The notes under the pieces were generated by a model, which saw nothing but the letters and a program-made list of their open reading frames with translations, was not told the DNA's origin and made no database searches. Positions 62,466-62,856 of a stretch of 64,000 nucleotides of DNA are shown in pieces (the stretch's first letter is position 1; each line of letters starts with the position of its first letter). Both the position numbers and the translations under genes were made by a program. The DNA is from an uncultured virus (IMG/VR IMGVR_UViG_2627853734_000003) (Duplodnaviria > Heunggongvirae > Uroviricota > Caudoviricetes). The stretch is from the IMG/VR virus record IMGVR_UViG_2627853734_000003, positions 1 through 64,000 of that record. The stretch is one strand, 5' to 3'.

Positions 62466-62856
62466 TATATAATGTTATCGTAAAGGCTTTTTATCCTTTA
62501 CATCTAGGAGTTTCCTCGCCCCTATTAATTTTCATTAATAGATTTCAGAATGTCAATTCATTCTTAGATCAGCATACCTTTTCACCCTCGTTTAACGTTA
62601 GGCACTTGATTATTACTCAAGTGAAATAGAGTATATCTATTTGTGGAGTGGTCTCGTGGATGAATTATACGGTTGGATATCATCCATTAACCTTCATCAT
62701 CTATGCGTTGCCCCTGACTGATATTTCTATCATCAATCATATTACTATGATTTAGTACATAATGTACGCCTTCGGTTCAGATTATCCCTTTAGGACTCCC
62801 TGCTTAATCCCACTCTCATAATCATTAGGAGTTTCCTCCTAAGACGGCAAAACTTT
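62466..62856 (-). ncRNA. ORF-less group I-like intron (about 391 nt) in the tape measure gene
   Basis: P1 with U.G pair at GGU|; P3 GAGUGG/CCACUC; P7 AC-GCAUA/UAUGCU; GAAA hairpins. Removal restores KTRESG|ETIGTSLKT. Confidence 0.8.

Follow-up and report, generated by a model that had tools for sequence, protein, structure and literature searches.

A private terminal A in an ORF-less group I-type intron that interrupts the tape measure gene of a phage-plasmid from Clostridium botulinum group III

The interrupted tape measure gene

The DNA analysed here (the window; 64,000 nucleotides of the virus record IMGVR_UViG_2627853734_000003) belongs to a neurotoxin phage-plasmid of Clostridium botulinum group III. 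A named and near-clonal record, NZ_CP063960.1, was 99.9-100.0% identical to it in all three blocks searched, and phage c-st showed 90.9% identity around the intron described below. According to the annotation of the matching record, the end of ntnH and a botulinum neurotoxin DC gene occupy positions 82-5489 of the window.

The gene and the intron studied lie on the minus strand, to which all of their features given below belong. The 5' exon (62857-64000) is an open frame that runs past the window end and finishes with ...EKTRESG. It covers positions 5-128 of the PF10145 profile, and shares 143 of 179 residues with the allele of strain 1873, which is intronless. The 3' exon (57510-62465) begins with ETIGTSLKT and comprises 1651 codons plus a stop; its first 78 residues cover positions 132-199 of the same profile. 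In the intronless alleles, the PF10145 domain is unbroken across the insertion site. As judged by their sequences, the frames flanking the intron form a single tape measure gene, and where c-st-like botulinum phages are annotated with two tape measure "genes", these most likely represent exons of one gene. In NZ_CP063960.1, the gene is annotated in five pieces. The additional breaks correspond to four single-base homopolymer gaps, which are likely sequencing errors of that record.

Between the exons lies an ORF-less group I-type intron of 391 nt (62856-62466), which is missing from two intronless alleles and carried by four named relatives. One of the intronless alleles belongs to C. botulinum 1873, the other to a C. 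tetani plasmid. Because both read straight through the site as ...EKTRESG ETIG..., the insert is fixed at 62856-62466 with the junction RESG|ETIG. A preliminary description, made from the letters of the window, had proposed a group I-type intron with these boundaries in a tape measure gene and had suggested a comparison with intronless alleles; the uninterrupted RESG ETIG in both of them confirms the proposal. The positions that it gave for the 5' exon end, the U.G pair with the guide, P3, P7, A62466, and G62465 were all recovered. It had also noted the lack of an internal endonuclease ORF. Correspondingly, the largest ORF within the intron on its own strand measures 33 aa, and no homing endonuclease ORF was found on that strand inside 62856-62466. 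An in-frame UAG (62839-62841) lies 15 bases into the intron, and unspliced RNA would end the protein at ...KVLPS*.

The 5' exon ends with GGU at 62857. The guide GUUUUGCC (62853-62846), located by script, places U62857 opposite G62848 in the U.G pair of P1. The whole splice-site and guide stretch (62846-62859) is defined by sequence and fold, and shows compensating changes in the phiCD211 intron, which occupies this site too. Both intronless alleles are without the U of this pair. The last Ser-Gly codons (62862-62857) read AGT GGT in the intron-bearing alleles versus TCA GGC and TCT GGG in the intronless ones, a contrast that looks like 5' exon co-conversion at insertion.

At the 3' end, translation of the exon from 62465 gives ETIGTSLKT and an open frame of 1651 codons, whereas translation from 62464 gives KQLEHH*. 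The calculated P10 energy was -2.9 kcal/mol for the 3' exon from 62465 versus -1.0 kcal/mol for the shifted register. P9.0 consists of the pairs A62569-U62467 and U62568-A62468, and puts 62466 in the terminal position; its 5' strand (62568-62569) is assigned from sequence and family covariation. The earlier claim that the in-frame junction precedes G62465 is thus borne out by the intronless alleles, P9.0, and P10 alike, and splicing after G62465 does run out of frame into a stop, as had been predicted. Since each of the four G bases lying up to about 13 nt from the junction (62479, 62465, 62456, and 62455) yields an out-of-frame exon, there is no in-frame G-ending junction nearby.

The databases annotate two genes at this locus, and a UUG start at 62447 opens a frame of 1645 aa. 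Both observations fit a dead relic that is spliced in no copy, with two separate proteins being made, in keeping with the c-st annotation (CST131 and CST130). We consider this reading very improbable. The interruption splits a single Pfam domain (profile positions 5-128, then 132-199) that is continuous in the intronless alleles, and despite the 5% divergence of c-st, the pairings of the core and the splice sites are preserved in every copy. Furthermore, phiCD211 carries a compensated intron at the same site.

Core structure and intron family

The intron stretch folds better than its shuffled versions (z -3.85; 1 of 100 shuffles was as good). A P2 hairpin with a GAAA loop (62825-62842) is supported by fold and sequence. 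The 5' strand of P3 (62810-62815) forms six Watson-Crick pairs with the 3' strand, in the order 62651-62646 against 62815-62810 (3' strand, 62646-62651). P7 is formed by ACGCAUA (62702-62708), which comprises A62708, the bulged C62707, and G62706 of the guanosine-binding pair, and by UAUGCU (62571-62576), which contributes C62572. The binding pair G62706-C62572 is intact in the window. Between P7 and P3 lies a P7.1-type insertion (62659-62701), in which five of five pairs showed two-sided changes among 47 sequences. An extra helix in this place is a feature of subgroup IA, and the layout of the intron is that of subgroup IA. A terminal P9 hairpin (62473-62502) with GGAUAAAAAGCC and a GAUAACA motif is a hallmark of introns with a GCAUA/UAUGC P7. 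The P4-P6 pairings (about 62804-62710) are plausible by eye in a region where the alignment is too loose for counting.

Removal of the intron restores the gene, and a U.G pair in P1, a P3-P7 core, and P9.0 together with P10 were found, as is typical of group I introns. The window copy departs from the group in its last base, which is A62466 instead of the omega-G, and the locus was classed as group I on the G-ending copies. Rfam returned no group I match in the window, nor in any of five related loci. These loci include the phiCD211 record with its annotated canonical Intron_gpI, and as that intron was also missed, the result is uninformative. The Rfam group I model is described as incomplete in the part of the literature consulted on it (PMC11878797). 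Single 12-mer or 9-mer motifs in the window were not beyond chance (35 and 11 of 100 shuffles, respectively), and the case for the intron consequently rests on its homologues.

Homologous introns were collected with a pattern made of the 3' strand of P7 and the terminal hairpin. An earlier pattern was dropped as too loose, as about 3 of the 119 stretches that it returned were intron-like. The scans yielded at least 199 loci, of which at least 176 were distinct. The 5' strand of P7, which was outside the search pattern, was present upstream in 150 of the 176 distinct copies among the matches listed; in the other 26, the motif was absent in the DNA examined. In ten of the 176, the two strands of P7 were separated by more than 200 bases, and it is possible that these are endonuclease carriers. 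Among the listed copies with a GAUAACA-type motif (n = 173), UG followed 2-8 bases later in 169 and AG in four, in a test that is blind to an A end followed by G unless the reading frame is checked. The base three after P7 and the base two before the G formed a pair in 106 of 169 listed copies, compared to a mean of 61 and a maximum of 78 in shuffles (0 of 10,000 as high), in a set whose copies are related to each other. For P3, a strict 5-bp partner was found upstream in 50 of 134 family copies versus 5 of 134 in a control stretch.

For the covariation alignment, the window was combined with 46 of 88 non-redundant compact copies; the 42 omitted ones were 8 longer copies and the entire 34 from a second scan. 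In these 47 sequences, 97.4% of the cells were paired and two-sided changes occurred in 19 of 29 pairs, whereas slid controls gave 27-44%. P7 and the loop of the terminal hairpin were fixed by the search patterns and therefore contribute nothing to this count. The preliminary description had rightly found P7 in the form GCAUA/UAUGC and had taken it for a compensated variant of the canonical helix. By its distribution over at least 176 distinct copies, this P7 is a standard trait of a large phage intron family and not a local compensation. The family escapes Rfam and deserves a model of its own, and the P9.0 covariation predicts its 3' ends.

Three introns from other records are close in structure. 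The first tape measure intron of Clostridioides phage phiCD211 occupies the homologous site (QNA|EKVGTALK versus ESG|ETIGTSLK in the window) and shares the P7 and the 3' motifs, with a guide that is altered in step with both exons. It differs in its length of 288 nt, in its terminal G, and in being followed by a second intron with a canonical P7. The two phiCD211 introns stand in tandem (1246-1533 and 1557-1822 of its record) with an exon of 7-8 codons between them, and the second alone is annotated. An unannotated intron in recA of Acinetobacter phage ME3 has the same P7 and P9 extension as the window, but resides in another gene and host and ends in G. With the intron of pBWB404, which also ends in G, the window shares the GCAUA/UAUGC P7, the CCACGAG junction, and the terminal hairpin.

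In Bacillus prophages, group I introns were reported at three sites of tape measure genes, TMP-IVS3 being assigned to class IA1, in the portion of the survey by Tourasse and Kolsto (2008) available to us (PMC2504315). TMP-IVS3b is placed on pBWB404 there, from which we infer that the pBWB404 intron is TMP-IVS3b. As far as the descriptions in that survey go, the Bacillus cereus group prophage intron TMP-IVS3b and its kin (TMP-IVS3a and term-IVS1) share with the window a tape measure host, the lack of a complete endonuclease ORF, and an early in-frame stop (PMC2504315). The insertion site of TMP-IVS3b is different, and the P6, P7.1, P8, and P9 extensions are longer in the 391 nt of the window. 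The core motifs shared with the pBWB404 intron suggest that the intron 62856-62466 belongs to IA1 in the sense of Tourasse and Kolsto. Table 3 of the survey relates C. botulinum phage c-st to a tail-tube intron, with the host gene not given in the table (PMC2504315).

In one contig of sequencing run X1 (contig 1), about 326 additional bases were found at window positions 63151-63152, within the 5' exon, with substitutions close to the insert at 63118 and 63196-63199. The insert probably marks a further site of intron insertion in this gene.

The private base at position 62466

The last intron base (62466) is A in the window and G in every other copy examined. Specifically, G was found in all four named intron-bearing records aligned, in all six viral contigs from a scan that permitted A or G, and in four of four sequencing runs from four studies at depths of 31 to 598 (the best 4 of 22 runs listed), the last count being limited by the loss of rare variants from run contigs. 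Of the 10 records within the resulting 14 of 14 copies with G, which show four junction types, several are probably duplicate entries for strains already counted. An exact search for the A allele matched nothing in metagenome contigs and nothing in genome contigs. A short junction pattern matched nine times in metagenomes, three times with A; intron motifs lay upstream of none of the nine, and these matches were put down to chance.

Two records were 100.0% identical to the window over intron bases 1-390, and the record L328 showed one difference from the window in 1425 bases. As two G-ending records match the remaining 390 bases, there is no compensation for the A within the intron. The preliminary description had interpreted the A as the end of a rare type of intron. 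This interpretation found no support, as the A was absent from all 10 records and all four runs, the G-binding pair is unchanged, and the copy is otherwise identical to G-ending ones; natural omega-A introns have an A fixed across a lineage, and here 0 of the 14 other copies have it. Its alternative suggestion, an additional G missing from the sequence at the junction, was rejected, since the relatives have the same length there; they share the junction and differ by a base substitution at 62466. On the sequences compared, A62466 is a private substitution of one sequence only. We are thus highly confident in the reading of the locus as an ordinary, ORF-less and hence immobile group I intron with a GCAUA/UAUGC P7 in the tape measure gene of a group III phage, with A62466 as a private base.

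At present, A62466 is one base in one assembly, and its origin was assessed by comparing positions 16000-64000 of the window with NZ_CP063960.1. The comparison revealed 15 substitutions and 14 single-base gaps. Multi-copy mobile elements hold 12 of the substitutions, and all of the gaps are losses in homopolymer runs on the side of the record. Outside mobile elements, the substitutions are the one at 62466 and two in a lysin-like gene, both missense (26584 and 26895). An error in base calling or assembly, in which case the isolate has the usual G and nothing unusual, retains a substantial probability somewhat short of even. The A is a singleton seen in 0 of 14 other copies, it is a transition, and it is the sole substitution outside an IS element in 24 kb relative to the near-clonal record. 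Against an error, the reading frames of the window are intact at homopolymer runs that are broken in the record, as befits a clean-looking assembly, and the two further private missense changes are expected for a distinct isolate. As a clean assembly of a distinct isolate with few private changes slightly favors a real mutation, we lean towards A62466 being a real and recent mutation of the isolate, which appears somewhat likelier than a base-call error.

The lysin-like ORF that holds 26584 and 26895 (glucosaminidase-SH3 type; 26416-27144) has a sole outgroup, L337, which sides with the record at these positions.

Predicted splicing and effect of the terminal A

Structure, boundaries, family, and the privacy of the A are regarded as established; splicing and all effects of the A are what we infer from sequence. 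In the lineage, free guanosine would cleave after U62857. The 3' junction would then be docked by P9.0 and P10 with the terminal G in the P7 site, and exon joining would give a single long tape measure protein, as expected from the structure and from what is known of the family.

In the window copy, if the A is real, the first step should be unaffected. The second step would be conflicted, as P9.0 and P10 favor the A junction and the G site favors G62465, the use of which would lead to an out-of-frame exon. Slow joining, less full-length protein, and likely poorer tail assembly would be the outcome. A real A62466 would thus probably impair exon joining, with some exact joining being possible by analogy to introns that naturally end in A.

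Mutagenesis of the omega-G in the Tetrahymena and Anabaena introns is classic work. Selection of the terminal G by the G site of group I introns is described in the accessible part of PMC5192423, and for an IStron library, every alternative 3' site had a terminal G within 10 nt, according to the section consulted (PMC13521648). Hexacoral mitochondrial ND5-717 introns, as far as covered by the passages available, end in A (PMC8146996), and their exons are joined exactly in vivo but inefficiently, with more than 70% of the precursor unspliced (PMC6545197). Because these A-ending introns join exons exactly, an A end need not abolish splicing. Common to ND5-717 and the window, within the same passages, are a group I core and a last base that is A or not G (PMC8146996, PMC6545197). 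The coral trait spans species and joining was demonstrated in vivo, whereas the A of the window is found in one sequence, all relatives of which have G.

These introns bear on the reading that the window contains a working intron ending in A, in which P9.0 and P10 alone place the junction well enough for the tape measure protein to be made. P9.0, with its covariation in the family, and P10 (-2.9 versus -1.0 kcal/mol) both indicate 62466, and the exact splicing of the A-ending ND5-717 introns in vivo is in line with it, to the extent that the cited passages describe it (PMC8146996, PMC6545197). A second carrier was absent from the records, the runs, and the viral, metagenome, and genome scans, however, and the window copy has an intact G-binding pair, no compensating change, and a rival G one base downstream. 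Moreover, the coral introns occur throughout their lineage and have had a long evolution, and still leave more than 70% of the precursor unspliced in the data consulted (PMC6545197). We regard this reading as improbable. The combination that it calls for, a real A together with exact splicing in which P9.0 and P10 override the G site despite a rival G one base away, receives the same low standing. If true, the window would hold a natural bacterial omega-A intron one mutation old, in a tail-assembly gene and with an otherwise identical G-ending twin. In the literature searched, no paper on the intron 62856-62466 or on a bacterial omega-A intron was found; the supplements of PMC11835236 and PMC2504315, subscription papers, and the 2005 c-st genome paper may list such introns.

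Our preferred reading remains an ordinary family intron with a private last base, in which a real A would impair exon joining. A milder scenario than exact splicing with an A end, which we consider less likely than not, is that A62466 is real, cripples tail assembly, and marks, together with the two missense changes in the lysin-like gene, a toxin phage that is settling into plasmid life. Should the A be confirmed, the locus would either offer a natural test of how well a group I intron manages when the last G is missing, or mark a prophage on the way to giving up its particle stage.

Further elements of the phage-plasmid were recorded. The stretch 52888-57053, which separates the tape measure gene from the distal tail gene, contains one Fic/Doc gene, one GNAT gene accompanied by small partners, and an IS701 transposase; they are interpreted as toxin-antitoxin-like cargo within the tail module. 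An ORF with a metallo-beta-lactamase fold (24959-26317) is assigned to the ComEC/Rec2 family by the annotation of a related record, and nothing in this ORF marks it as a resistance gene. A group II intron with a reverse transcriptase/maturase ORF is located at 21366-23203 and differs from the near-clonal record by 11 substitutions. As close copies exist on other plasmids, copies of this intron may have been mixed in one of the assemblies.
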